A stretch of 64,000 nucleotides of DNA from Anaerolineales bacterium (GTDB lineage: Bacteria; Chloroflexota; Anaerolineae; Anaerolineales; Villigracilaceae): positions 2,483-66,482 of the forward strand of contig JBEKEB010000001.1 of NCBI GenBank assembly GCA_050014055.1, written 5' to 3'. The notes beneath the pieces were generated by a model. The model saw nothing but the letters and a program-made list of their open reading frames with translations. It was not told the DNA's origin and made no database searches. Every line of letters starts with the position of its first letter. Positions within the stretch are counted from its first letter, which is position 1. This document shows, piece after piece, positions 1,546 to 49,307 of the stretch. Made by a program: the position numbers and the translations under genes.

Positions 1546-2610
1546 TCATAAACGAATCACAAACCCACAGTACTCGCATTTGATGCTGTCCATGCCGCGC
1601 AATACCACCGAGGTGATATTGCCTCCGCAGGAGGGACATTGCGCTGGGGCCGACTTGACCTTTTCCACCGCCGCCTGGTCGAGCGCCACTGCACGGCCCT
1701 GGTCGAAGTCCTTGTTCTTGGCACGGTTGATCAGCGCCTGCCAGGCCACATTATCCTGCCAGATGTGAAAATGCGCCATCTGCACTGCGGCGCCGCTGGC
1801 AAAATGTACTTCGATATGGTCTTCGTTCTTAAGCAGGCCCTGCTTGCTGGTTTCCACTTTATCCACCAGTGCCACCGGAGCTTCCAGCTGTAATCCCTGT
1901 ACCTTCTGTTTCTCTCTTGCCACAAAGAGTACTTTCTTGGTGGCGATCTCTTCCTTTTGCTCGAAGATCAGGCGCTGGTCGGTCAGGTAGAGTACACCTT
2001 GCGGATCGCCCTTCTGCTCTTTGCCGGTCTTGCGCCAGCCCGCCTTGACCGCCGCGATGCCCGCCTCGGTCGGCAGCAATTGGAAGGAGGCCTCGGCCAG
2101 TTGTCCCAGCAGGTACTCGATCTCCTCCAGGTGCCGGGTGGCTGTGGACACCTGGTTGGTGAACTGGGTGTACATCCCCTCGATGGCCTGTTCGGCAGCA
2201 GGTACCTTGCTTTCCTCCTGCCCTACCGCCGATTGCAGCGTTGCCAGCAGACCGCGTGCAGCCGCCGGGTTGCCGGCCATCGCTGCCAGTTGCGGCATCT
2301 GCATCTCGATTGGACGCAGGGAGTTCACCAACGCTGTCGATTGTGTGTTGATCTGTGTTTGCAGGTTCGGGTACAACTGCATCCAGGAGCTCACAAAGGA
2401 CTGTGCCTGTCCTTCCATATCTTTCTCGAAGACGTAGCCGCGCGCCCTTAAGCTGGCTATGCGCTGTGCCAATCCATTTACGGTCGTTTGTGCCGACTCA
2501 ACCGCCTCGCGGCTGCTGGTCAATTGCACACTTCCCTGCAACGTGTTGACCCTGGCCTGCAGGGCATTGATCTCTTCGGAAATTTCCTGAGCGGGATTGG
2601 GAGTTACCAA
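1546..2610 (-). CDS. Hypothetical protein: N-terminal coiled-coil, central PH/GRAM-like segment (YLTDQRLIFE), C-terminal CxxC...CxxC zinc ribbon
   Basis: 354-aa ORF with a TTG start 6 nt after AGGAGG (rc of 2611-2622). Composition is coding-like. I recognise no family name with certainty. Confidence 0.65.
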   Translation of the reverse strand: MVTPNPAQEISEEINALQARVNTLQGSVQLTSSREAVESAQTTVNGLAQRIASLRARGYVFEKDMEGQAQSFVSSWMQLYPNLQTQINTQSTALVNSLRPIEMQMPQLAAMAGNPAAARGLLATLQSAVGQEESKVPAAEQAIEGMYTQFTNQVSTATRHLEEIEYLLGQLAEASFQLLPTEAGIAAVKAGWRKTGKEQKGDPQGVLYLTDQRLIFEQKEEIATKKVLFVAREKQKVQGLQLEAPVALVDKVETSKQGLLKNEDHIEVHFASGAAVQMAHFHIWQDNVAWQALINRAKNKDFDQGRAVALDQAAVEKVKSAPAQCPSCGGNITSVVLRGMDSIKCEYCGFVIRL

Positions 2611-2797
2611 GGCTTACCTCCTGTGCTAATAGGATAATATTGACTTTATTATTGCACAAATGAACAGGAATGACAACAGATCGGACCAAATCTCGGAAAT
2701 GATCCAACCGGTTGCTTTTTATGGGTTTTTCAAGATGGGATTTCGTGAGTGTAGGGAGATTGCCAGGCTTAAATGGATAATCTTGATTGATAACCAC

Positions 2798-2826
2798 TTG
2801 ACAATGTGTTTGATTTTCAGTATACT
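2798..2826 (+). promoter_or_regulatory. Sigma70-type promoter of the lacI-family gene
   Basis: TTGACA (2798-2803), 17-nt spacer, TATACT (2821-2826), lying 34 nt upstream of the ATG. Confidence 0.6.
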
Positions 2827-2831
2827 ATAAT

Positions 2832-2849
2832 TACTAACACGTGTTAGTA
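2832..2849. promoter_or_regulatory. Perfect 18-bp palindromic operator, tactaacac|gtgttagta
   Basis: Perfect inverted repeat immediately downstream of the -10 box. The core TAACACGTGTTA recurs at 3920-3931. Confidence 0.65.
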
Positions 2850-2859
2850 GAAGAGAATT

Positions 2860-3879
2860 ATGCCCAGAAAACGTGTCACCAGCTTCGATGTTGCTGAAAA
2901 GTCGGGGGTATCCAGAACCACGGTCTCGTTTGTCCTGAACAAAGTTCCGGGCATCAGTATCAGTGATTCCACCCGCCAGCGGGTCCTCCAGGTTGCAAAA
3001 GAACTGAATTATCATCCGGATTCTACGGGGAAAAAACTTGCCAGCGGAAAGTCGAATGCTCTCGGGTTGGTCCTCCGCCAGAGTCATGAGCAGGTATTTG
3101 CGGACGCATTACTTCCCCAAGTGTTGATGGGAATTGGTCAGGCCGCCACCGAGCAAGGCTTCGAGGTTCTACTGAAACCGCTGGAACCGCAGGATGCTGA
3201 CGGATATATGCGCCTAGTCCATGAGAACCATGTGGACGGCATTATTCTCTCAGGGCCCCGCCAGGAAGAATCCGAGATCATCCGCTTGCACAATGAAGGG
3301 CTGCCGGTCATGCTCATGGGGCAGTTGCCCGGAAGCGGCCTGCCCTTTGTGGATATCGATGCGGTCAGCGGCTCCGCCTCAGCAGTCAATCACCTGATCG
3401 AACATGGCCACCGTCGCATCGGTCTGATTACCAATGCCGCCTTGGAATACACCTCTGCCCAGCAGCGCCGTCTGGGTTATCTAAATTCACTAAAGCAAGC
3501 TGGAATTGAACCGGATGATTCCCTCATGCAGGCAGGAAACTATACTTCTGCAAGTGGTTTTACAGCCATGCAAAAACTGCTGGAAGTGTCCCCACGCCTG
3601 ACAGCGGTATTCGTCGCCAGCGACGTTGTTTCACTGGGTGCAATTCGGGCGATTAAACAGGCTGGGTTGAGAATTCCCCAGGATATTGCCGTGGTTGGCT
3701 TCGATAATATTCCCATGGCAGATTATTTTGATCCTCCCCTCACTACCGTTCGTATCCCATCTTACGGGCTTGGCTGGGCCTCCGGGGAACGGCTCGTGCG
3801 ACTCGTACAGGGTGAAGTCCTTGATCAAGAGGGCATGCTGCTCGAATCCGAGTTGGTTGTTCGCAATTCGAGTTGTTAA
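2860..3879 (+). CDS. LacI-family transcriptional regulator
   Basis: N-terminal HTH VTSFDVAEKSGVSRTTVSFVLN followed by a periplasmic-binding-protein-like sugar-binding core; 339 aa. Confidence 0.9.
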   Translation: MPRKRVTSFDVAEKSGVSRTTVSFVLNKVPGISISDSTRQRVLQVAKELNYHPDSTGKKLASGKSNALGLVLRQSHEQVFADALLPQVLMGIGQAATEQGFEVLLKPLEPQDADGYMRLVHENHVDGIILSGPRQEESEIIRLHNEGLPVMLMGQLPGSGLPFVDIDAVSGSASAVNHLIEHGHRRIGLITNAALEYTSAQQRRLGYLNSLKQAGIEPDDSLMQAGNYTSASGFTAMQKLLEVSPRLTAVFVASDVVSLGAIRAIKQAGLRIPQDIAVVGFDNIPMADYFDPPLTTVRIPSYGLGWASGERLVRLVQGEVLDQEGMLLESELVVRNSSC

Positions 3880-4088: not shown

Positions 4089-5480
4089 ATGAACGTACGA
4101 TCAATTCGAATAATTGGCTTGCTGGTCGCCGCTAGCTTAATCTTCACAGCCTGTGCGTCCGCAGCCACACCCACGGCAGCCCCGGTTCAGCCGACTGCCA
4201 CCATGGCGCCCGTCGCCACCGCTACCATGGCCCCCGTCGCTACTGCTACCATGGCCCCCGCCGCCACCGCCACCACCGCACCCGCTGCTGCAACCATCGA
4301 TTGCAAGGGAGCGGCTTCCGGCGATACCATCTCCGTTGCCTACCAGTGGTCTGGATCGGAGGAAGCCAGCTTCCAAACCATCATCAAACCGCTCGAGGAT
4401 GCCTGTGGTATCAAGATCACTGGCAGTTCCACCCGCGACGCCTCCGTGCTAGACACCATGGTCAAGAGCTCGCCTCCGGATGTGCTCTTCTGGCCGGACC
4501 TCTCCCCGCTCAAGCTGTACACCAGCATGCTGCTGCCCTTGGATACCGTCGGCGGCAACCAGTCCAATTATGCACAGTACTGGATAACCATGGGCACAGT
4601 CAATGGCAAATGGCTGGCCATTCCGGCCAAGGCTGACCTGAAAACCATCATCTGGTACAGCCCCACCCAATTCGCCGCGCTCGGGTATACCGTCCCGACC
4701 ACCTTCGCCGATCTACAGACTCTGGTTGACAAAATGGTCGCTGATGGCAATGTACCATGGAGCATGGGCTTCAACAACGGCGGCGCAGCGGATGGCTGGA
4801 CCGGTTCCGACTTCATCCAGGACATACTCCTCGCCACCCAGGGACCAGACTACGTCAATGGCATCATTGCCGGTACCACACCATACAATGATCCGGGCGT
4901 GCTGGCGGCTTATCAGGTATACCAGAAGTGGGCTTCGGATCCGAAGTACACCGTTGGCGGAGCCAATGGCACGGTCAACACCAAATTCCTGGATGCCATC
5001 TACAAAGTATTTTCCAATCCGCCCCAGGCGTTGATGGTCAAGCAATCCGGCTTTGCCGGCGGCTCCATCGCGACGCAATACCCCACCTTGAAATATGGCA
5101 CCGATTACGATTTCTTCCAGTTCCCTGGCGCCAAGGGCATGCAAGGCGGAGCCGATTTCATGATGGCCTTCAGTAACAAACCGGCCGCCCAGGCCCTCGT
5201 TGCTTACGTTACCGGTACAGTCGGCGGCCAGAATTGGGCCAAGGCTAATTTCAGCGTCTCTCCGAACAAGAATGCCAACGGCAACTATACCGACCCGCAG
5301 GTGATCAAGTTCGCCCAGATGCTCGCCAATGCTTCCGGCTTTACCTTTGATATAGGCGATGCACTCGGAGCTCCGTTCAATGATGCCGAATGGAAGGGCA
5401 TTGTCGCAGTGGTCCAGGGCGCAGATATACCCACGACCCTTGCAACAATCGCCGCAGCGCAGAAACAATCCATCAAATAA
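4089..5480 (+). CDS. Sugar ABC transporter substrate-binding lipoprotein (solute-binding family 1)
   Basis: Signal peptide with lipobox LIFTAC, an Ala/Thr/Pro linker, then a family-1 SBP-like body. RBS AAGGAGG upstream. Confidence 0.85.
   Translation: MNVRSIRIIGLLVAASLIFTACASAATPTAAPVQPTATMAPVATATMAPVATATMAPAATATTAPAAATIDCKGAASGDTISVAYQWSGSEEASFQTIIKPLEDACGIKITGSSTRDASVLDTMVKSSPPDVLFWPDLSPLKLYTSMLLPLDTVGGNQSNYAQYWITMGTVNGKWLAIPAKADLKTIIWYSPTQFAALGYTVPTTFADLQTLVDKMVADGNVPWSMGFNNGGAADGWTGSDFIQDILLATQGPDYVNGIIAGTTPYNDPGVLAAYQVYQKWASDPKYTVGGANGTVNTKFLDAIYKVFSNPPQALMVKQSGFAGGSIATQYPTLKYGTDYDFFQFPGAKGMQGGADFMMAFSNKPAAQALVAYVTGTVGGQNWAKANFSVSPNKNANGNYTDPQVIKFAQMLANASGFTFDIGDALGAPFNDAEWKGIVAVVQGADIPTTLATIAAAQKQSIK
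4194..4289 (+). repeat. 24-nt x4 in-frame tandem repeat encoding (T-A-T-M-A-P-V-A)n in the lipoprotein linker
   Basis: Units start at 4194, 4218, 4242 and 4266, read directly from the sequence. Confidence 0.85.
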
Positions 5481-12815: not shown

Positions 12816-13696
12816 CCTCCCATCGGAGTCCGAAGTCTGGAGACTTCGGACTCTATATATCTGCACTGATGCTCGTTTTCCTAGCGGCCTGCCAATCCCA
12901 GGCCGCTATAGCGTTAACATCAACTGCCACAACCTCCCCCAACCCAACCGCCAGCCCGACTGTCACCAGCACACCCACATTAATTCCTTCTCCCACCGCA
13001 ACTCCCACTCCCGCCCCAACCCTGTTCATGTTGCCAACCCTGGACCCGCAAGCCACGCTCCAACCCTGCGATCAACGCCGTCCGGCCGACAGTGATTTGT
13101 TTTCCGAAGTGGATGCCAATTATGGCCTCGACCCAGCCTATGTGCCCGGGGACCTGGTCAGGCTGGGAAATTACCTGCCCGGCCGGGTGACCCTGCCGGA
13201 TATGCTGTTGCGCCAGCCGGCCGCCCGGGCGTTGGGGAAGATGGTCAAAGACATGCTGGCTGTCGGTCTCGCCCCGACCGTGCTGTCTTCCTACCGGAGT
13301 TACTTCGACCAGGCCGTGGCCCATAATCTCTGGGTGGTTTCCGATCCAACCAACGCCAATGAGGTCAGCGCCCTGCCCGGTCACAGCGAACACCAGCTGG
13401 GCACGGCAGTGGATTTCGGCTCACCAGAGCTGCCCTCCCTGACAGGCACCACCACCGATCCATTTTCCACTCTTTTCGACCAGACCAATGAAGGTCGTTG
13501 GCTGGCCCAGCATGCTTTCGAATACGGTTTTAGCCTGAGCTCCCCGCCGGGAGCCGAAAGCGTAACCGGCCTGGCCTACGAGCCCTGGCATTACCGTTAC
13601 GTGGGACTGGAAATGGCAGCCTACCTGCACGCGAGCGGATATTATTTGGACGAGTATCTGCTAAAGGTGCGCCCTGTAATGCCCTGTCAGCCCTGA
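12812..13696 (+). CDS. M15-family (VanY-like) D-alanyl-D-alanine carboxypeptidase, lipoprotein with Thr/Pro linker
   Basis: Lipobox LAAC; SxHxxGxAxD-type motif PGHSEHQLGTAVDF; EPWHYRY. Confidence 0.8.
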   Translation: MTSHRSPKSGDFGLYISALMLVFLAACQSQAAIALTSTATTSPNPTASPTVTSTPTLIPSPTATPTPAPTLFMLPTLDPQATLQPCDQRRPADSDLFSEVDANYGLDPAYVPGDLVRLGNYLPGRVTLPDMLLRQPAARALGKMVKDMLAVGLAPTVLSSYRSYFDQAVAHNLWVVSDPTNANEVSALPGHSEHQLGTAVDFGSPELPSLTGTTTDPFSTLFDQTNEGRWLAQHAFEYGFSLSSPPGAESVTGLAYEPWHYRYVGLEMAAYLHASGYYLDEYLLKVRPVMPCQP

Positions 13697-13778
13697 AAAC
13701 CATGATTGCCATGAAATTACCAATAGGAAAGCATGACACTTTGCAGTATGATTAAAGTTGCATCCTTCGGAGTGCCGC

Positions 13779-15023
13779 ATGCGTTATAGAAACATCCTTC
13801 TGTGCCTGGTTATTCTATCGTCCTTGATCGCCTGCACGGTTGACCCCGGTACCCTGCCCTCTTTTTGGGGATTCCTGGGGCCAGACTTGCTCGTTCCAAC
13901 GGATACCCCCACGGTCACCCAAACGAAGGTACCAGCGACCTTTACAGCCTCGGTCACGCTTACCCTCACCTCCACTTCTTCAACGACCTATACGCCAACC
14001 TCTACAGGGACCTCCACAGCCACATTACCCACTTCCCTGACGACAACCGCCACGCCCTCTTTCACCACCAGTCCAACCTTCACCCTTACGCAAACCCCCT
14101 CCTTGACGGCAACCGCCACGCGCACTTTCACCGCCACAGCAACATTAACGCGCACATTAACTCCATCGATTACCAAGACCCCAAGTACAACATTCACCCG
14201 CACTTCCACAGTCAGTCTGACCAGAACGCCAACCCCAACATTTACGCATACTCCCAGCCAGATTGCCTCTTTTACCTCCACAACTACAAAAACGGGCACT
14301 CCGGCCTTCAACCCCTCTGATACGGGAACGGCCACAAGCACTTCCACTGCCAGTCAGACCAGGACGTCCACACCGGCAGATACCATGACTTTTACCCCGG
14401 GACGGACCAGCTCCATCACCTCTACATCTACCCAAACCGCCTCACCAACCTACACCCAGTCAGTTTCGGCAACGGAAACGCGCACTCCCACCGCCAGCCT
14501 GACCAGAACGCCCACCTCGACGCCCACCAAAACTGTTTCCGCAACAACCACGCCAACCCGTACGAATACCCCGCCTGCTGTAGCAACGAGCACCCCCACG
14601 AAATCCGGCTGCAGCTTGATTCATAATGGCGCCTTTGAGAACCAGATGCTCAGCCTCATCAACGCCCAACGCGCCCTGGCTGGCCTGGGCGCATTGACAG
14701 ATTCCTATCCGCTCGAGAACTCTTCCGGGATCCACAGCGATGACCAGGCGGCCAATGATTTCCTCTCGCACACCGGCTCGGATGGTTCTACCTATTGGCA
14801 GCGGGAGGTCGCGGCGGGCTATACCGGCAGATGGGGCGGCGAGATCATCTACGCCGGTTCGGGCGCCTATAACAACCCCCAGAGCGCCGTGACCTGGTGG
14901 ATGAATGACGCACCGCATAAAGCCATCATCCTTGCCGATTACAACGACTTCGGCGCAGGTTATGCTTATTGTCCCACCGGCACCTATGGCGGCTTCTTTA
15001 CTGTGGATTTTGGCCATCGATGA
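13779..15023 (+). CDS. Secreted CAP/SCP (YkwD-like) domain protein with a ~250-aa Thr/Ser/Pro low-complexity linker
   Basis: Lipobox-like LIAC. The C-terminal part runs LINAQRA...HS..M......SHTG...WGENI-like and ends with GYAY. ATG at 13779 chosen instead of TTG 13758. Confidence 0.75.
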   Translation: MRYRNILLCLVILSSLIACTVDPGTLPSFWGFLGPDLLVPTDTPTVTQTKVPATFTASVTLTLTSTSSTTYTPTSTGTSTATLPTSLTTTATPSFTTSPTFTLTQTPSLTATATRTFTATATLTRTLTPSITKTPSTTFTRTSTVSLTRTPTPTFTHTPSQIASFTSTTTKTGTPAFNPSDTGTATSTSTASQTRTSTPADTMTFTPGRTSSITSTSTQTASPTYTQSVSATETRTPTASLTRTPTSTPTKTVSATTTPTRTNTPPAVATSTPTKSGCSLIHNGAFENQMLSLINAQRALAGLGALTDSYPLENSSGIHSDDQAANDFLSHTGSDGSTYWQREVAAGYTGRWGGEIIYAGSGAYNNPQSAVTWWMNDAPHKAIILADYNDFGAGYAYCPTGTYGGFFTVDFGHR

Positions 15024-43407: not shown

Positions 43408-44337
43408 TTAAATTTTATCTTTTGAAAGCGCCCACTCTATATCCATCGGCCTGCCGTATTGTTTTTCCACTTGATTTGCCAGGTTCGTAAGCTGCACAAG
43501 TTCATCAACTCCAAGGCAGTATGATTTCCGCTCTGACTGAGGAACTTCTTCGGTAATTGTGCCTTTTTCCGTTAACCCTATCCTGAGCTCTTTGGAACCG
43601 AGAACTTTTTCCTTGATCCTGCCTTCCTTGGTCATAATAAAGGTATCCGGGTTTATCAGGCCGCTGACAACCACCTCTCCAAGGCCATACCCGGCACTTA
43701 TTAGTATTTCATCTCTGTTTCCATTTAGAGGATTTGCAGTAAACATGACCCCGGCAGACTCCGAAGCTATCATAGCTTGAACTACCACCGCAAGATCAAC
43801 TTTAAGGTGTTCAAAACCCATGCTCATTCTATAAGATATGGCTTGTGAGGACCATAGACTTGCCCAGCATTTTTTCACATTGAAAAGGACAGCCTCTTTT
43901 CCATAAATGCCCAGAAAAGTGTCGTGCTGTCCTGCAAAGGAAGCCGATGGCAAATCCTCTGCAGTAGCACTTGAACGCACTGCGACTGAAAAATTTTCAG
44001 CAAGCCCCATTTTTTCAGAAAGGTTCACATAAGCTATCTCTACTTGCTCCTGCACCTGGATGGGCATGGGAGCTTCCTCGATCCATGCAGAGATAACCTG
44101 GCTTGCCTCTGATATTGCAGGTATATCCTGCTCTTTAATATTTTCAAGCCTGCCTGCGATTCGCTCCTGGAGCCCTGACGCTTCAAGATGGGTACGATAT
44201 GCACCGGCTGTAACGACAAAGCCCGGCGGAACCGGAAGACCCGCATTAATCAACTCGCCAAGATTGGCAGCCTTGCCTCCTGCTTCTGGCAGTAAATCTT
44301 TATTCAATTCACTTAAGATTTTTATATAATTTATCAT
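43408..44337 (-). CDS. N-terminal (PEP/pyruvate-binding, ATP-grasp) fragment of a PEP-synthase / rifampicin-phosphotransferase-like enzyme, ending at a premature TAA
   Basis: GGKAANLGEL, PVPPGFVVT, VAVRSSATAEDLP and DIEWA blocks. The TAA at 43408-43410 is in frame with ORF 41791..43380. Confidence 0.75.
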   Translation of the reverse strand: MINYIKILSELNKDLLPEAGGKAANLGELINAGLPVPPGFVVTAGAYRTHLEASGLQERIAGRLENIKEQDIPAISEASQVISAWIEEAPMPIQVQEQVEIAYVNLSEKMGLAENFSVAVRSSATAEDLPSASFAGQHDTFLGIYGKEAVLFNVKKCWASLWSSQAISYRMSMGFEHLKVDLAVVVQAMIASESAGVMFTANPLNGNRDEILISAGYGLGEVVVSGLINPDTFIMTKEGRIKEKVLGSKELRIGLTEKGTITEEVPQSERKSYCLGVDELVQLTNLANQVEKQYGRPMDIEWALSKDKI

Positions 44338-44541
44338 GTTTGTCTTCTCTTATTATTTAAATTGTTCACATTTAATAAAAAATTTTCTACCAATAAGAGT
44401 ATAAGCTGCGATTGTGAAATGAGTGTGAATACACGCGGGAGAATCTATGGTAAATAGATAATATGCACAGCTTGAATTGAAATCGCGAGTCGTTTCTGGT
44501 AAGCTCCTATTAGACGAGTTTTAGAAAAGAAAGGAGCTCAT

Positions 44542-45705
44542 ATGAAACCAGAAACAACTCGCACCATTAATGATACACCACAACCTCAGTACCTTTACAT
44601 GGCAATCGAACTCAGCAACGAAAAGTGGAAGCTTGGGTTCAGCATCGGGTTTGGGCAGGCCCCGCGCCTGCGCGACCTGGATGCCCGGGATCTGGCAGGA
44701 TTGGTCAAGGAGATCCATATGGCCAAGGAGCGGTTTGGTCTGCCAGAGAGTGCACCAGTGCTCAGCTGTTATGAGGCTGGGCGGGATGGCTTTTGGCTGC
44801 ACCACTACTTGCAGACGCAGGGGGTCGCCAACCTGGTAGTGGATTCGGCCAGCATCGAAGTCAACCGTCGCAAACGACGGGCAAAGACGGACCGGATGGA
44901 TGTTGGGAAACTGCTGACCATGCTGATGCGCTACCATCATGGCGAGAAAAAGGTCTGGAGCATCGTGCATGTTCCCAGCCCGGAAGATGAAGACCAGCGG
45001 CAGTTGCATCGTGATCTGATGGCGCTCAAGGCCGAGCAGACCCATCATATCAACCGGATGAAAGGTTTGCTGGCCAGCCAGGGTGTGGCGCTGCCCTTCC
45101 AGAAGGATTTTCTCTCCCGCTTGGAGACGGTGCGGCTGTGGGACGGCTCACCCTTGCCCTCTGCCTTGCATGCCCGGATGAAGCGGGAGTACGAACGCTA
45201 CCGGCTGGTCAAGCAGCAGATCAACCAACTCGAGCTCGAGCGGGAGCAGGTGGTTTGCACTTCGACCGCCCCGGCCGTGGAGCAGGTGCGCCAGCTGTTG
45301 CGGCTGAAAGGGATCGGGATGAATTCGGCCTGGGTGTACGTGATGGAGTTCTTTTCCTGGCGCGGCTTTCACAACCGGCGAGAAGTGGGCTGCCTAGCTG
45401 GATTGACCCCCACCCCCTACCAGAGCGGTGAGAGCAACCGGGAACAGGGCATCAGCAAAGCCGGTAACCGCCGCATCCGTGCCATGGCGATCGAGATCGC
45501 CTGGGCCTGGCTGCGTTTCCAACCTGACAGCCAGCTCAGTCGCTGGTATCAAGAACGCTTTGCCCAGGGCGGCAGCCGGGCGCGCCGCATCGGCATCGTT
45601 GCACTGGCCCGCAGGCTGTTGGTCGACCTCTGGCAATACCTCGAGAAGGGTGCACTCCCGGAAGGCGCCTGTTTGAAATCCAGTGGCCTGTCCGACCCCG
45701 GCTGA
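44542..45705 (+). CDS. IS110-family (DEDD) transposase
   Basis: N-terminal DEDD_Tnp_IS110-like part and C-terminal Transposase_20-like LKGIGMNSAWVYVMEF...LTPTPYQSGES...GISKAGNRRIR. AAGGAG RBS. Confidence 0.9.
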   Translation: MKPETTRTINDTPQPQYLYMAIELSNEKWKLGFSIGFGQAPRLRDLDARDLAGLVKEIHMAKERFGLPESAPVLSCYEAGRDGFWLHHYLQTQGVANLVVDSASIEVNRRKRRAKTDRMDVGKLLTMLMRYHHGEKKVWSIVHVPSPEDEDQRQLHRDLMALKAEQTHHINRMKGLLASQGVALPFQKDFLSRLETVRLWDGSPLPSALHARMKREYERYRLVKQQINQLELEREQVVCTSTAPAVEQVRQLLRLKGIGMNSAWVYVMEFFSWRGFHNRREVGCLAGLTPTPYQSGESNREQGISKAGNRRIRAMAIEIAWAWLRFQPDSQLSRWYQERFAQGGSRARRIGIVALARRLLVDLWQYLEKGALPEGACLKSSGLSDPG

Positions 45706-45838
45706 ACCATTTCAGCTAGAGCGATTATGCTCCCTCCGGCCACCCTATCAAGGGATCGCTGCGTTCGGCTCCCTTCGGTCGCTGCCCTTGACAGGGGCCC
45801 GGCCTCCGGGAAATCGCTCTGCTTATGAAATGGTTCAG
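45702..45838. repeat. 137-nt long-hairpin element, copy A
   Basis: Outer stem ctgaaccatttca/tgaaatggttcag, second stem agagcgatt/aatcgctct, inner stem tcaaggg/cccttga. Confidence 0.8.
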
Positions 45839-46208
45839 CCTGAAAATGTCCACTCGCTGTCTCTCCCAAGATTGGATCTGAGACAGCTGGCGAGATCCCT
45901 GCCCCTGAAAGGACTACTTCCTCCCTGGTGTGAGCTGCCCGTTTTTACTCCGGGTTTTCCTCTGGAAACCGATAAATAGATGGGGCTGCTCCCCAAGAGC
46001 TTCTTTACTCGCCTCCAAGCGAAGACAATATTGGGTACCTGGTCATGGACCAGTACGGATAGAAGACACGTTTTGTCAAGAGGCCAATCCCCGACAAGGT
46101 ATATCAATCTAGCGGAGTCAAGCATCGTTTTTGACCCGAGTTGGACTGTGTCAGCAGGAAGTTTGCTTGGCGATCTTAGGGTTGAATAAAAGCTGAGGTG
46201 TTTCTCGA

Positions 46209-46346
46209 CTGAACCGCTTCTCGCAGAGCAATTCTCTTCCCTCCGGCCACCCCGTCAAGGGATCGCTTCGCTCGGCTCCCTATCGGTCGCCGCCCTTGAC
46301 TGGGCCCCGGCCTCCGGGAAGGCGCTCTGCTTATGAAGCGGTTCAG
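46209..46346. repeat. 138-nt long-hairpin element, copy B
   Basis: Collinear with copy A, with compensated stem changes (ctgaaccgcttc/gaagcggttcag). Confidence 0.8.
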
Positions 46347-48140
46347 TCAAAGAATGTTCAGCCTGAGATGGCGGATCGCCTCAAACCTTTCGATGCTGAC
46401 GTGTCTTGTACGTTCATGAGGGACCAACCAAAGATCTACACATCCAGAATGCTCAGAACAAAATTGAAGATTATTTAGGTTTTACGCGTAAAGCATGTTG
46501 GCGTAAGTGACGGCCTTCATCATAAGGGACTCGATCCTGCCAAAGTCTCCAAGCGATCTCCAGCCAGCGATTGGCCAGCCGCCGATAGGCGTGACTGAGC
46601 GAGTCGCACTGCGGTCGGATGGTTTGGAAGTATGTATTCGCCCAAACCGAGGAGCCGATCGAGCATTTGGCCCATTGTTGGACGATCAGACGAAACTCAT
46701 GATCACAGGCGTAGCGGAAGGAGACATATTTATGTTTGCCGCTGGCTTTGGTGACCGGACAGGTTCCGGCTACACATTGCAAGACCTGTGGGGTTGGATA
46801 GCGCTGGCGGTCGTCTCCAAACTTGGCCAGCAGAGCGGGAGCCAATATTCTCCCAGCTCCCGGCAAGGATGAAAAGATAGGATAATCTGGATGATCCACG
46901 AACAGCTCCTGGGTCTCTTTGAGCGTGGCGGCTTTGTCTTGCACTACCTGCAGAGCTAAATGCGCCAGGCGGACGGCTTCTGATTGATAGGCGAGGACAG
47001 TTTGTTGCTTGGCATCCGGCTGGGGTTTCTGCAAACGTGCGTAACAGGCAGATAATTTGGAAGGTCGAGGGTAGTGATGGAGTTTGGCAAAACTCTTGAA
47101 TTGCTCAATCGTCAGCCCGGTAGCCGCTTCTGGAGTCGGATAAGCACAAATAAACTCCAGCGCAATCTGCTGATCCAGGCTGCTGAATACCCCGGCTGCA
47201 TTCGGATAGTAGCGCCACAGCACATTACGTAAACGATTGGTGGTCTGGATGATCGTGCGAGTGAGAAAACGCTCCAGGCTGACCAAGGACGCAATCTGCT
47301 GGGTCAGCAGACTATCGCTATGCCAGGCATGCAACCGGGCTCGGTCCGTGCGCAGCATATCTGCGATCAGATGGGCATCGCTGCGATCCGTCTTGGCCTT
47401 GCTGGCCCCAAACCTGCCTCGAGAATCTCTGATCATGCTTGGTGGAATAACATAGATCTGCTGATACTGATGGGATGTCAAAAAGTCGATCAACAGATTA
47501 TGCTCCGTTTCTATGCCCACCAGGCAGTCCTCAACACTGACCCCCAATTCCATGCGCTGCTCATCGAATGCCTCAAATCCTGCGGGTGAATGCGGAATGG
47601 TCTGATATAAAATGATCCCTCCTTCCTCGTTCAAATATACGATATCGTGCTTTTGAGTGCTCCAGTCGATTCCGATGTATACTTTCATGAGAACCTCCTT
47701 GAGCATTCCTGGAGGGGCACTGGCCGGTGGATGTTCTCTAGTTATGGCGCTCCTGGCGCAACACGTTTTTGACACTCTGCCGGTTCTACCTGGGGAGCAG
47801 TCTTCTATTGGCGCTCCCAGCGCTGTTTGTTCGGGGCCCTTATTCCCAGGTTAGTGCCAATGGGGTAGACAGATCTTGGTTGGTTCCCATCTCTGTTCTA
47901 CCCCATTTTCGCACTTATGCCGATTGTACGGTAACTAGCTTGTTGAGAGAGAATTTCTCCTCAACGCTTCATGAAGCTGCCAGGAATGCAATCGCAAGAA
48001 GTAACCAGGGGAGTAGGGGAACGCTGTTGAAGTGTGTTGCTGTTGTTCGCAAGGAGTTCGACCGCTGGCAGTCTGTGGCTTGGCTGCTGATCAACCATCG
48101 GTCCACTAGAAACGACCGTGCAAGGCCGGTCCTATAAATA
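46347..48140 (-). mobile_element. IS110-family insertion sequence, copy 2; ends not resolved
   Basis: Transposase gene plus about 450 nt of GC-matched, hairpin-rich upstream leader. Limits are guessed from composition only. Confidence 0.3.
46471..47688 (-). CDS. IS110-family (DEDD) transposase, second and distinct copy
   Basis: MKVYIGIDWSTQKHDIV ... SLPGAGRILAPALLAKFG ... SGKHKYVSFRYACDHEFR. The ATG at 47688 follows AAGGAGG; the ORF-track start at 47775 is judged too long. Confidence 0.9.
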   Translation of the reverse strand: MKVYIGIDWSTQKHDIVYLNEEGGIILYQTIPHSPAGFEAFDEQRMELGVSVEDCLVGIETEHNLLIDFLTSHQYQQIYVIPPSMIRDSRGRFGASKAKTDRSDAHLIADMLRTDRARLHAWHSDSLLTQQIASLVSLERFLTRTIIQTTNRLRNVLWRYYPNAAGVFSSLDQQIALEFICAYPTPEAATGLTIEQFKSFAKLHHYPRPSKLSACYARLQKPQPDAKQQTVLAYQSEAVRLAHLALQVVQDKAATLKETQELFVDHPDYPIFSSLPGAGRILAPALLAKFGDDRQRYPTPQVLQCVAGTCPVTKASGKHKYVSFRYACDHEFRLIVQQWAKCSIGSSVWANTYFQTIRPQCDSLSHAYRRLANRWLEIAWRLWQDRVPYDEGRHLRQHALRVKPK

Positions 48141-48275
48141 TTCTATAGCGATAAGCCTTGACAATATCGCTATCATAGAAGGAGAAAAAGACCATGAGTA
48201 AAGAGATTAGTTTGTTTTGCACCCATTTTTCAGCAGTGAAAGAATGTTTATTAATGTTAAGGTATAATCGCACGC

Positions 48276-49307
48276 ATGTCTGATAACGAACTGAAAGATA
48301 CCCAACCAAATACCGTAAAAACGGAAGCTGCCCCGCCTCCCAGGAAGAAATTCCCGGGTTGGCTGGCAGGGTTGGTTTTGATTGTATTCATCGCCGTCGG
48401 CATTCTGGGCGGGTATGCTTCCGGCATGGGACAACGCTATGCAGCCCAAAGCACGCAGGTAAGCGGACAACTCCTGGAGCAATATCAATTGGGTGTCCAG
48501 GCTGTGAATGCAGGCCAATATAGTGTTGCCAAACAGCATTTCGAATATATCATCCAGAACTATCCAGATTATCCCGGAATAAAGAGTGCGTATACCGATC
48601 TGCTCCTGCACATGATGATAACACCCAGCGAGGTTCCCTCTCCAACTCCGACTATTACCCCCACGCCTGATACACGCAGCATTGATCAGGTTTATGCCGA
48701 TGTTACCGCGCTTCTCTCTGCTCCAGGCGTGGATATGTGTGCCCGCAACTGGGACGATATTATTACCAAGCTTGATACCCTCCGTAAGGACGACATCACC
48801 TATCACGCTGCCATAGTGGATGGAATGTACTACATGGCCCTGCGCAACCGGGGGGTTTGCAAGATCTATCCTCAATCCTATGAGCCAAACTCCTCCTGCA
48901 TGACCCTCAACATAAACCTGGAAGGGGGCATCTACGACCTGACCCAGGCAGAAGGATTTGGACCCCTGGATTCGACTGCCGCGGCACTACGCACCTGGGC
49001 GCGTATGTATATCACCGGTGCGAGTTTCTGGGACCAGGACTGGCCGCAAGCCATTAATTATTTCAGCCAGGTCATGGCCAACTATCCTAATCTGGCGGAT
49101 TCATCCTGTACAACGGCTTCTGAACGTTTCCGGCAGGCCAGTCTCGGTTATGCGCAGCAATTGATAGATAAGGGCGATTACTGCGGTGCCGAAAAACAAT
49201 TCGAGGCGATCTTCTCCACAAACAGCCCGAAAAATGCCACTGCTTACCCCACCGGCACGGAAGCCAACCTTGTTTGTAATGGCGATGTTAATCCACCAAA
49301 ACCATAG
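48276..49307 (+). CDS. Hypothetical membrane-anchored protein (single N-terminal TM helix, TPR-like external domain)
   Basis: 343-aa ORF with TM helix WLAGLVLIVFIAVGILGGYA. No family recognised. Confidence 0.6.
   Translation: MSDNELKDTQPNTVKTEAAPPPRKKFPGWLAGLVLIVFIAVGILGGYASGMGQRYAAQSTQVSGQLLEQYQLGVQAVNAGQYSVAKQHFEYIIQNYPDYPGIKSAYTDLLLHMMITPSEVPSPTPTITPTPDTRSIDQVYADVTALLSAPGVDMCARNWDDIITKLDTLRKDDITYHAAIVDGMYYMALRNRGVCKIYPQSYEPNSSCMTLNINLEGGIYDLTQAEGFGPLDSTAAALRTWARMYITGASFWDQDWPQAINYFSQVMANYPNLADSSCTTASERFRQASLGYAQQLIDKGDYCGAEKQFEAIFSTNSPKNATAYPTGTEANLVCNGDVNPPKP

Follow-up and report, generated by a model that had tools for sequence, protein, structure and literature searches.

Insertion sequences (IS) of the IS110 family occur in two layouts, with a long non-coding region downstream of the gene for the transposase (tnp) in IS1111-type elements and upstream of it in IS110-type elements, and the guide RNA (seekRNA) of ISEc11 seems to arise through processing of a longer transcript (PMC11187229). 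Repetitive extragenic palindromic (REP) sequences and attC sites are targets of IS110/IS1111, IS3 and other IS (PMC1525189, PMC11187229), and an IS110-family element of Pseudomonas putida, ISPpu9, carries a small-RNA module, ssr9 (PMC12288879). Here we describe two long hairpins, A and B, in a 64-kb stretch of contig JBEKEB010000001.1 (hereafter the window), from an Anaerolineales metagenome-assembled genome (MAG) recovered from peat. The locus consists of two nested IS, with IS#2 lying within the 3′ region of IS#1, hairpin A inside IS#1 and hairpin B inside IS#2. On balance, the hairpins are probably copies of a passenger foldback DNA module of ~140-180 nucleotides (nt) that resides in the 3′ non-coding ends of unrelated mobile elements of Anaerolineae and Chloroflexota, and that was previously uncatalogued.

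By analogy, ssr9 of ISPpu9 is the nearest counterpart in logic. Each is a structured, non-coding accessory located downstream of the gene for an IS110-family transposase, dispensable for transposition, present in only some copies and read as a selfish passenger. However, ssr9 is mobilised by the ISPpu9 transposase via its own boxes and also occurs solo in the genome, whereas the hairpin described here is common to IS110, IS21, IS3 and tyrosine-recombinase elements in both orientations and has no known mobilising enzyme or solo circle. In form, it resembles the REP doublets known as REPINs, which are likewise imperfect, non-coding palindromes of 100-150 nt that form long hairpins with a variable centre and keep the complementarity of their arms (PMC3116915, PMC3337134). 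No link to REP-associated tyrosine transposases (RAYT) and no target-site duplication were found for the hairpin family. The same palindrome form is known from enterobacterial repetitive intergenic consensus sequences or intergenic repeat units (ERIC/IRU), Correia elements and Rickettsia palindromic elements (RPE), and all of these families, the hairpin included, at times overlap the 3′ ends of genes. REPIN, ERIC, Correia and RPE repeats are high-copy, mostly extragenic host repeats that are largely species-specific, whereas members of the hairpin family number 1-3 per genome, almost always reside within mobile elements and are common to many MAG species. REP and attC targets also tie palindromes to several IS families, but there the IS interrupts or abuts a host palindrome, and here the palindrome is internal cargo of the IS. 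As in the seekRNA and bridge RNA systems (PMC11187229), IS#1 has an IS1111-type 3′ non-coding region with a segment that covaries with the insertion site; unlike in those systems, the guide-like segments (45973-45981 and 46057-46065) lie outside the hairpin, which itself fails guide tests. A full-text literature search on palindromic or IS-associated hairpins of Anaerolineae returned general REP/REPIN papers only. We know of no described case of one structured palindrome in four mechanistically unrelated transposon families, always at the 3′ non-coding end.

The two hairpins are placed as follows.

45700-45840, + strand: hairpin A, inside the 3′ non-coding region of IS#1, in the orientation of its transposase gene tnp1.
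46207-46348, + strand: hairpin B, core of a larger palindromic block (the B unit), in the orientation of A and antisense to tnp2, the transposase gene of IS#2.

The initial annotation of this locus had reported two ~137-nt copies that align end to end with a single indel, and both are present: A (45702-45838, 137 nt) and B (46209-46346, 138 nt) lie in direct orientation, align over their whole length with one internal 1-nt indel (MAFFT) and share 118 identities in 139 columns of a global alignment (~85%). Each forms one long imperfect hairpin, whichever strand is folded, with predicted energies of -68 kcal/mol for A (z -6.6) and -74 kcal/mol for B (z -7.8) that none of 200 dinucleotide shuffles equalled in either case. 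The outer stem is perfect in both; in A it has 15 bp (GGCTGAACCATTTCA / TGAAATGGTTCAGCC, 45700-45714 paired with 45826-45840), and in B it has 14 bp (46207-46220 paired with 46335-46348). The outer, second and inner stems named in that annotation all recur in the minimum-free-energy structures, and the AT-to-GC change that it noted between the outer stems is indeed compensated in both arms. Its convergent IS110-family transposases were also recovered, with tnp1 on the + strand and tnp2 on the - strand, both with family matches, and the distance between the end of hairpin B and the tnp2 stop codon is 123 nt, where ~125 nt had been given. Because IS#2 is nested in IS#1, the hairpins stand 370 nt apart between these convergent genes. 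Hairpin A was also said to begin on the tnp1 stop codon; the TGA at 45703-45705 does lie in the hairpin base, but the overlap is incidental and goes back to a 26-nt deletion. Arm hidden Markov models found no further copies in the window beyond A and B. A conserved peptide encoded on the hairpin was considered, as the reverse strand is open in one frame, and was ruled out by hand translation: since the frame differs between copies and apical lengths vary, there is no conserved coding sequence across the elements, in agreement with the initial annotation.

Subsequently, genomes (one per species) were scanned with an exact pattern and metagenomes with a pattern from the other arm. The genome scan gave 27 matches, of which 23 were true copies, almost all in MAGs of Anaerolineae/Chloroflexota, and 4/27 (L038, L043, L045 and L046) were chance matches in GC-rich genes and were dropped as hairpins. 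The metagenome scan added 53 copies, bringing the two scans to 76 loci. Exact-pattern copies numbered 1-3 per genome and tracked the copies of the IS; beyond the pattern-anchored copies, the window and 587 kb of fetched loci yielded hardly any more, just one in L081, where the IS is present twice, and an incomplete one in L092. When loci were oriented on the hairpin and neighbouring open reading frames (ORFs) were clustered, a gene of a mobile element (IS110, IS21, IS3 or tyrosine recombinase) was found within 2.2 kb of the hairpin at 58 of 76 loci, and the remaining loci were mostly contig-end or truncated copies of the same types. The neighbouring genes were the following.

IS110-family transposases of several subfamilies, upstream and on the same strand as the hairpin: 24 loci.
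IS21 istA and/or istB, upstream and on the same strand as the hairpin: 16 loci.
IS3 orfA/orfB, on the opposite strand and converging on the hairpin: 10 loci.
Large tyrosine recombinase, on the opposite strand and converging on the hairpin: 11 loci.

In elements with mapped ends, the hairpin is inside the element and 3′ of its last gene. It lies 150 nt inside the right inverted repeat of an IS21-type element of 2.9 kb, which has a relative without the hairpin at L040, and ~65 nt from the end of an IS3-type element of 1.7 kb, as mapped from repeat units. No match to 45690-46360 was found among the PLSDB plasmids (blastn, distant mode), and six pattern matches in viral contigs were all chance occurrences in coding DNA without a hairpin. 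At one locus (L042, 2218-4664) the hairpin follows two tandem same-strand tyrosine-recombinase-like genes, which, from motifs read by eye, may represent a recombinase-in-trio type element and hence a further host class. True hairpins were also seen on short contigs binned outside Chloroflexota, one of IS3 type in a MAG of an ANME-2 (anaerobic methanotrophic) archaeon (L035) and one of IS21 type in an Acidobacteriota MAG (L040); these reflect either mis-binning or horizontal spread of the carrier IS. In L035 (orfB, 1107-2393) and L099 (recombinase, 1812-3776; hairpin-oriented coordinates) the stop-to-stop ORF of the last gene enters the reverse strand of the hairpin, and the tails of such ORFs read, for example, ...FPEAGAPSR.... 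In the IS3 and tyrosine-recombinase types, the module may thus have taken the place of the native stop codon and extended the product by a C-terminal tail, as RPE do in Rickettsia.

In an alignment of 38 distinct copies in which a linker stood in for the variable apex, we found compensatory changes in 11 of the 13 pairs of the outer helix. Its cells were paired in 96% of cases, as against 19-57% when partners were slid, and the observed covariation was reached by 0 of 500 shuffles, so that the structural claim of the initial annotation withstands a covariation test on many more copies. The inner helices are invariant across copies; as they contain the search patterns, they are uninformative on covariation. 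The apex, read by eye, exists in a few unrelated versions of variable length. Among the few non-Watson-Crick cells, G-U and A-C numbered 13 versus 15 in sense copies and 7 versus 4 in antisense copies. Since G-U is not above A-C, there is no RNA wobble signature and the strands behave alike; complementarity looks to be maintained at the DNA level.

Presence and absence of the hairpin among relatives of the two IS bear on its role. Hairpin A is carried by IS#1 relatives with 87-100% transposase identity at different sites (including L011-L020 and L132-L134). A relative at 84% identity (P0026) occurs five times in one genome, each time at a different site; it retains the remainder of the 3′ region and lacks the hairpin. 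In L133/L134 an IS#1-type element that is intact in other respects has lost the entire core and apex, and only the first third of the hairpin is left in L027 (P0060 locus). Hairpin B belongs to a larger block.

46150-46400, + strand: B unit, a palindromic block of ~250 nt in the 3′ region of IS#2, present as an indel relative to L004.

The outer arms of this block (GTCAGCAGGAAGTTTG / CAAACCTTTCGATGCTGAC) pair, and hairpin B forms its core. The unit is absent from the closest IS#2 relative, L004, whose transposase is 93% identical and which occupies the same site in IS#1, and the unit, like hairpin B, is absent from all sampled IS#2 relatives, including P0126 (84%) and P0127 (83%). The flanks of the unit occur only in this composite element and close copies, and its insertion boundaries are blurred against the 93% relative, because the flanks there are too diverged for the boundaries to be fixed. 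Overall, presence and absence were compared at homologous sites for IS#2 versus L004, IS#1 types versus L021 and the IS21 type versus L040, with divergence of 7-26% blurring the boundaries. The module is recopied each time its host IS transposes. It is also a frequent rearrangement breakpoint: copies in L027, L028, L061, L065, L069, L079, L083 and L092 are truncated or broken, and the truncation points differ within the palindrome. A single 24-kb contig bears two truncated hairpins (L079, 4440-4530, and L069, 13700-13730). The first ~60 codons of an integron-integrase-like gene (hand translation; no Pfam match) take the place of the left arm in L079, with the joint at the boundary of inner stem and apex.

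Several traits of miniature inverted-repeat transposable elements (MITEs) and foldback elements are present, namely perfect outer arms of 14-15 bp, a near-complete foldback and, in the B unit, further outer arms. A passenger foldback module would spread mainly by hitchhiking on host elements, with rare transfer between elements via insertion or recombination. The 3′ non-coding stretch would be the only insertion-tolerant place in a compact IS, and this would explain both the location of the module and the occasional replacement of a native stop codon. Arm complementarity would be kept on the DNA level through hairpin or cruciform formation, or through correction of one arm by the other, and any effects on the host IS would be secondary, such as those of a candidate 3′ stem-loop for transcript stopping or processing, or of a promoter-like site. 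Several results weigh against this interpretation. No direct repeats that would mark a target-site duplication were seen beside the arms in any type, and neither a cognate transposase nor a clean allele of an empty site was identified, which leaves insertion of the module, whether autonomous or trans-mobilised, unsupported. Conservation is highest in the mid-stem and not at the termini, opposite to what a typical MITE shows; that of the core is in part ascertainment, since the search patterns were taken from it. Exact-pattern scans under-count diverged solo copies, and the G-U and A-C counts are small. Covariation over more than 40 variants and retention in at least four element families could equally indicate a module useful to its hosts. 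By eye, the hairpin has no similarity to the mapped ends of its IS21-type and IS3-type hosts.

A more active kind of portable module is possible but doubtful, taking its two versions jointly: a self-mobilising foldback that settles specifically at the 3′ ends of genes for transposases and recombinases, or a cis-regulatory cassette that IS1111-like, IS110, IS21, IS3 and tyrosine-recombinase elements, though unrelated, repeatedly captured from each other. In the cassette version, a structured element with a promoter-like site on one strand resembling lambda PR would tune the expression of these elements or their interaction with a conserved host factor of Anaerolineae, for which the invariant hairpin core (CGGCCACCC-NN-TCAAGGG) is a candidate binding site.

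The hairpin could instead be a recruited cis-acting RNA that, in the 3′ end of the transposase mRNA or of transcripts coming in from outside, terminates the transcript, stabilises it or gives a processing site, and in IS#1 such an element could separate the tnp1 message from the guide RNA and shield the IS end from read-through. The strong predicted fold and covarying stem fit this reading, as does a location that is always between the 3′ end of the last gene and the end of the element and that in IS#1 falls exactly between tnp1 and the guide-like region, considering that the ISEc11 seekRNA appears to be processed (PMC11187229). We nevertheless regard it as unlikely. The hairpin is sense in tnp1-type IS110 and IS21 elements yet antisense in IS3 and tyrosine-recombinase elements and in IS#2, its strand-specific non-palindromic features are kept in both orientations, and G-U cells do not exceed A-C cells. 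Hairpin-less sister IS lineages are active and the core-deleted form persists. Neither hairpin has a terminator-like U-run, the stems being followed by CCTGAAAATG and TCAAAGAATG, and no terminator-like site was reported at either of them, which speaks against intrinsic terminators. Rfam gave no match at gathering thresholds in the window and none relevant at E<=10 in 44300-48300.

Alternatively, the hairpin might serve as a portable promoter cassette with a sigma-70-type promoter on one strand, firing outward over the right end in IS3, tyrosine-recombinase and IS#2 elements, or antisense into the transposase gene in IS#1 and IS21 elements. Both hairpins have a promoter-like site, and these are among only four promoter-like matches in a 4-kb region.

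45724-45751, - strand: promoter-like site of hairpin A, TTGATA-16-CATAAT, matching the consensus at 10/12 positions.
46231-46258, - strand: promoter-like site of hairpin B, TTGACG-16-GAGAAT, a consensus match that points to the right end of IS#2.

The arrangement TTGACN-16/17 nt-nAnAAT is found on one strand in 39 of 48 distinct hairpins and on the other strand in 2 of 48. The -10-like box lies in an unpaired internal loop, with positions 2, 5 and 6 fixed, position 4 mostly A and position 3 free, as a -10 box would show. These are consensus matches, however, with the -35 part fixed by the search patterns; a promoter leaves the palindrome and the covarying outer stem unexplained, would have opposite consequences for the host element in the two orientations and has no conserved product downstream, and we judge this reading improbable. 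More generally, the opposite orientations across hosts and the loss in active lineages weigh against a function that hosts require.

The two remaining explanations depend on how the nested IS are built, and the features outside the hairpins are listed here.

44451-44455, + strand: left target flank of IS#1 with the sequence TAAAT, to which the guide-like segment g1 corresponds.
44456-44541, + strand: left end of IS#1 and short AT-rich 5′ leader, AGATAATATGCACAGC...AAAGGAGCTCAT, conserved in relatives.
44542-45705, + strand: tnp1, IS110-family transposase of 387 aa (NF033542, Transposase_20).
45841-46065, + strand: 3′ non-coding region of IS#1, part 1, seekRNA-like, with g1 at 45973-45981 and a second guide-like segment, g2, at 46057-46065.
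46064-47938, - strand: IS#2, IS110-type, nested inside g2 of IS#1, its ends reading CT then AGTTACC, and ACGTGT then CT.
46471-47688, - strand: tnp2, IS110-family transposase of 405 aa, with Pfam matches.
47689-47938, - strand: 5′ non-coding region and left end of IS#2, conserved in relatives up to CTAGTTACC.
47939-48182, + strand: 3′ non-coding region of IS#1, part 2, and right end ...CTTGACAATATCGCTATCATAGAAGG, collinear with L011-L025.

A protein identical to that of tnp1 is encoded on 22 contigs, and each of the 10 places listed is this one locus, so relatives were needed to define the IS ends. Laid over the window, they place IS#1 from ~44456 to 48182, with junctions at ~44455/44456 and 48182: the flanks of relatives at several insertion sites diverge upstream of AGATAATATG, and those of L011-L025 diverge after ATAGAAG(G), the right end of IS#1. 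IS#2 splits the 3′ region of IS#1 in two (45841-46065 and 47939-48182), and the first part is homologous to the uninterrupted 3′ region of relatives, among them a 91% relative (P0009) found at several sites (L011-L020). The P0026 element comprises a leader of ~95 nt, tnp and a 3′ non-coding region of ~405 nt ending ...CATAGAAG. In IS#1, likewise, the leader is 86 nt long and the 3′ non-coding region, not counting the hairpin, ~405 nt; the long 3′ non-coding region is thus present, and no subterminal inverted repeats could be clearly made out. IS#1 thus has an IS1111-like layout, as first proposed, and IS#2 an IS110-like one. The ends of IS#2, with junctions at 46065 and 47938 in the window, were defined from relatives at at least seven independent sites (L118-L125) and from a second nested context (L108-L117).

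The tnp1 product matches NCBIfam NF033542 at 182.9 bits (cutoff 140) and also Pfam Transposase_20. In relatives with 96% and 89% identity, tnp1 stops at AGT TGA ~45 nt before the hairpin, and in the window lineage the 26-nt deletion removed this ancestral stop, hence the length of 387 aa. Its N-terminus (44542-44730) has no match to Pfam DEDD_Tnp_IS110, the NCBIfam match beginning at residue 62, and at the expected first catalytic Asp it reads AIELSNEKW, with Glu instead. The tnp2 product, with its start codon placed at MKVYIGIDWST, matches Pfam DEDD_Tnp_IS110 (97.6 bits) and Transposase_20 (44.3 bits) above the Pfam cutoffs and NF033542 at 132 bits, just under the cutoff of 140. The two transposases have no significant pairwise similarity. 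Following its layout, the 5′ non-coding region of IS#2 would be the position where IS110-type elements carry a bridge RNA.

The 3′ region of IS#1 has guide-like segments of its own. The segment g1 (TAAATAGAT, 45973-45981) equals the left flank joined to the IS end, TAAAT followed by AGAT, within the motif CCGA-TAAATAGAT-GGGG; across IS#1 variants, this motif takes the form CCGA-xxxxxAGAT-GGGG, that is, five bases of the left flank and the first four bases of the IS. In five IS#1 variants, g1 changes together with the left target flank, as follows.

Window and L133: guide TAAAT; left flank ...TAAAT, then AGAT.
L017 and L019: guide GAAGA; left flank ...GAAGA, then AGAT.
L085: guide TAAGT; left flank ...TAAGT, then AGAT.
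L021-L025: guide GACAA; left flank ...GA(T/C)AA, then AGAT.

The segment g2 (GGATAGAAG plus one base, 46057-46065) matches the right end ATAGAAG and the first base of the right flank. On this sequence covariation, g1 and g2 are putative seekRNA-like guide segments of IS#1. The first of them, ~135 nt downstream of hairpin A, is a short inconspicuous loop and was found by comparing insertion sites only. IS#2 is inserted exactly after GGATAGAAG, therefore inside the second guide-like segment, and this insertion probably disables the guide region of IS#1.

Several observations concern the relatives used above. In other assemblies of this locus (L004/L005, 4530-5900), exactly the same position is taken by a 93%-identical IS#2 variant, and another IS110-family element has an 83% relative nested in its 3′ region (L108-L117); the IS#2 lineage may target the non-coding ends of other IS, and assembly chimeras between strains are possible. 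At all of their at least seven sites, the 84% relatives of IS#2 (L118-L125) are arranged as GCCYAACACCGG-CT-IS-CT-CCAGCGGACAGCGGCTC, in a palindromic, REP-like repeat of the host that has CT as its core, as in IS621-type targeting, and one carrier is binned as a Thermoplasmata archaeon. In L011, L012, L014-L016 and L018, the left end of the 91% relative of IS#1 is replaced by a group II intron, with a reverse transcriptase (RVT_1 and a faint GIIM match) and a junction ~70 nt before the transposase start. The right flanks after ATAGAAGG in L011, L013, L016, L017 and L019, read by eye, resemble the C-terminal part of an IS605-type tnpB and its 3′ region; if that reading is correct, the 91% relative of IS#1 would target another transposon. 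Elsewhere in the window, degenerate direct ACC/CCA-rich repeats (periods of 44 and 66 nt) and a GC-rich repeat (period ~24 nt) at 12965-14521 and 4192-4288 are probably repetitive Thr/Pro-rich or Gly/Ala-rich coding sequence, unrelated to the hairpins.

With both IS delimited, a host REP-like or attC-like palindrome that was hit twice as a landing pad, one of the two proposals of the initial annotation, becomes very unlikely. In its favour, REP and attC sites are known targets of IS110/IS1111 elements (PMC1525189, PMC11187229), insertion into REP-like palindromes is indeed seen for relatives of IS#2, the hairpin base GAAC...GTTC recalls attC R boxes, and the truncated L079 copy abuts an integron-integrase-like N-terminal fragment. 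However, the junctions (~44455/44456, 48182, 46065 and 47938) all lie away from the hairpins, which are internal and travel with the IS, and 1-3 exact-pattern copies per genome contrast with the dozens that a REP would give. There are no arrays, the sole two-copy locus (L081) being two IS copies, and the uninterrupted outer stem of 13-15 bp misfits the attC geometry of R box, unpaired spacer and L box. We also tried attC as such and rejected it: the base GCYGAAC...GTTCRGC agrees at 6/7 positions per side with RYYYAAC...GTTRRRY, and the stem then continues for 13-15 bp. Arrays of attC beside an integrase were rejected as well, as there is a single copy per locus and the integrase-like fragment of L079 is truncated and has no Pfam match. 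IS21, IS3 and tyrosine-recombinase elements use no guide RNA. The other initial proposal, that the hairpin is the 3′ guide RNA (bridge RNA or seekRNA) of IS110/IS1111 transposases, can hardly be right: it is structured, covarying and in the non-coding region of an IS1111-type IS, but it is absent from active relatives of IS#1 (P0026) and of IS#2, hairpin A has no match of >=7 nt to the IS junctions, where a search for paired short matches to IS ends and flanks had been suggested, the covarying guide-like segment lies elsewhere in the 3′ region (45973-45981), and the hairpin also occurs in those guide-free families and antisense to tnp2.

For the annotation of such elements, the above analyses imply that a conspicuous covarying hairpin in the non-coding end of an IS110/IS1111 element need not be its guide RNA, and passenger palindromes could mislead pipelines in which bridge RNAs or seekRNAs are mined for genome-editing tools. 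The locus is at the same time an example of an IS1111-like guide covarying with its target in Chloroflexota, and of an RNA-guided IS inserted into the guide region of another, probably disabling that region. The sharing of one hairpin across families suggests either that co-resident mobile elements exchange parts or that the hairpin is a parasite of parasites.

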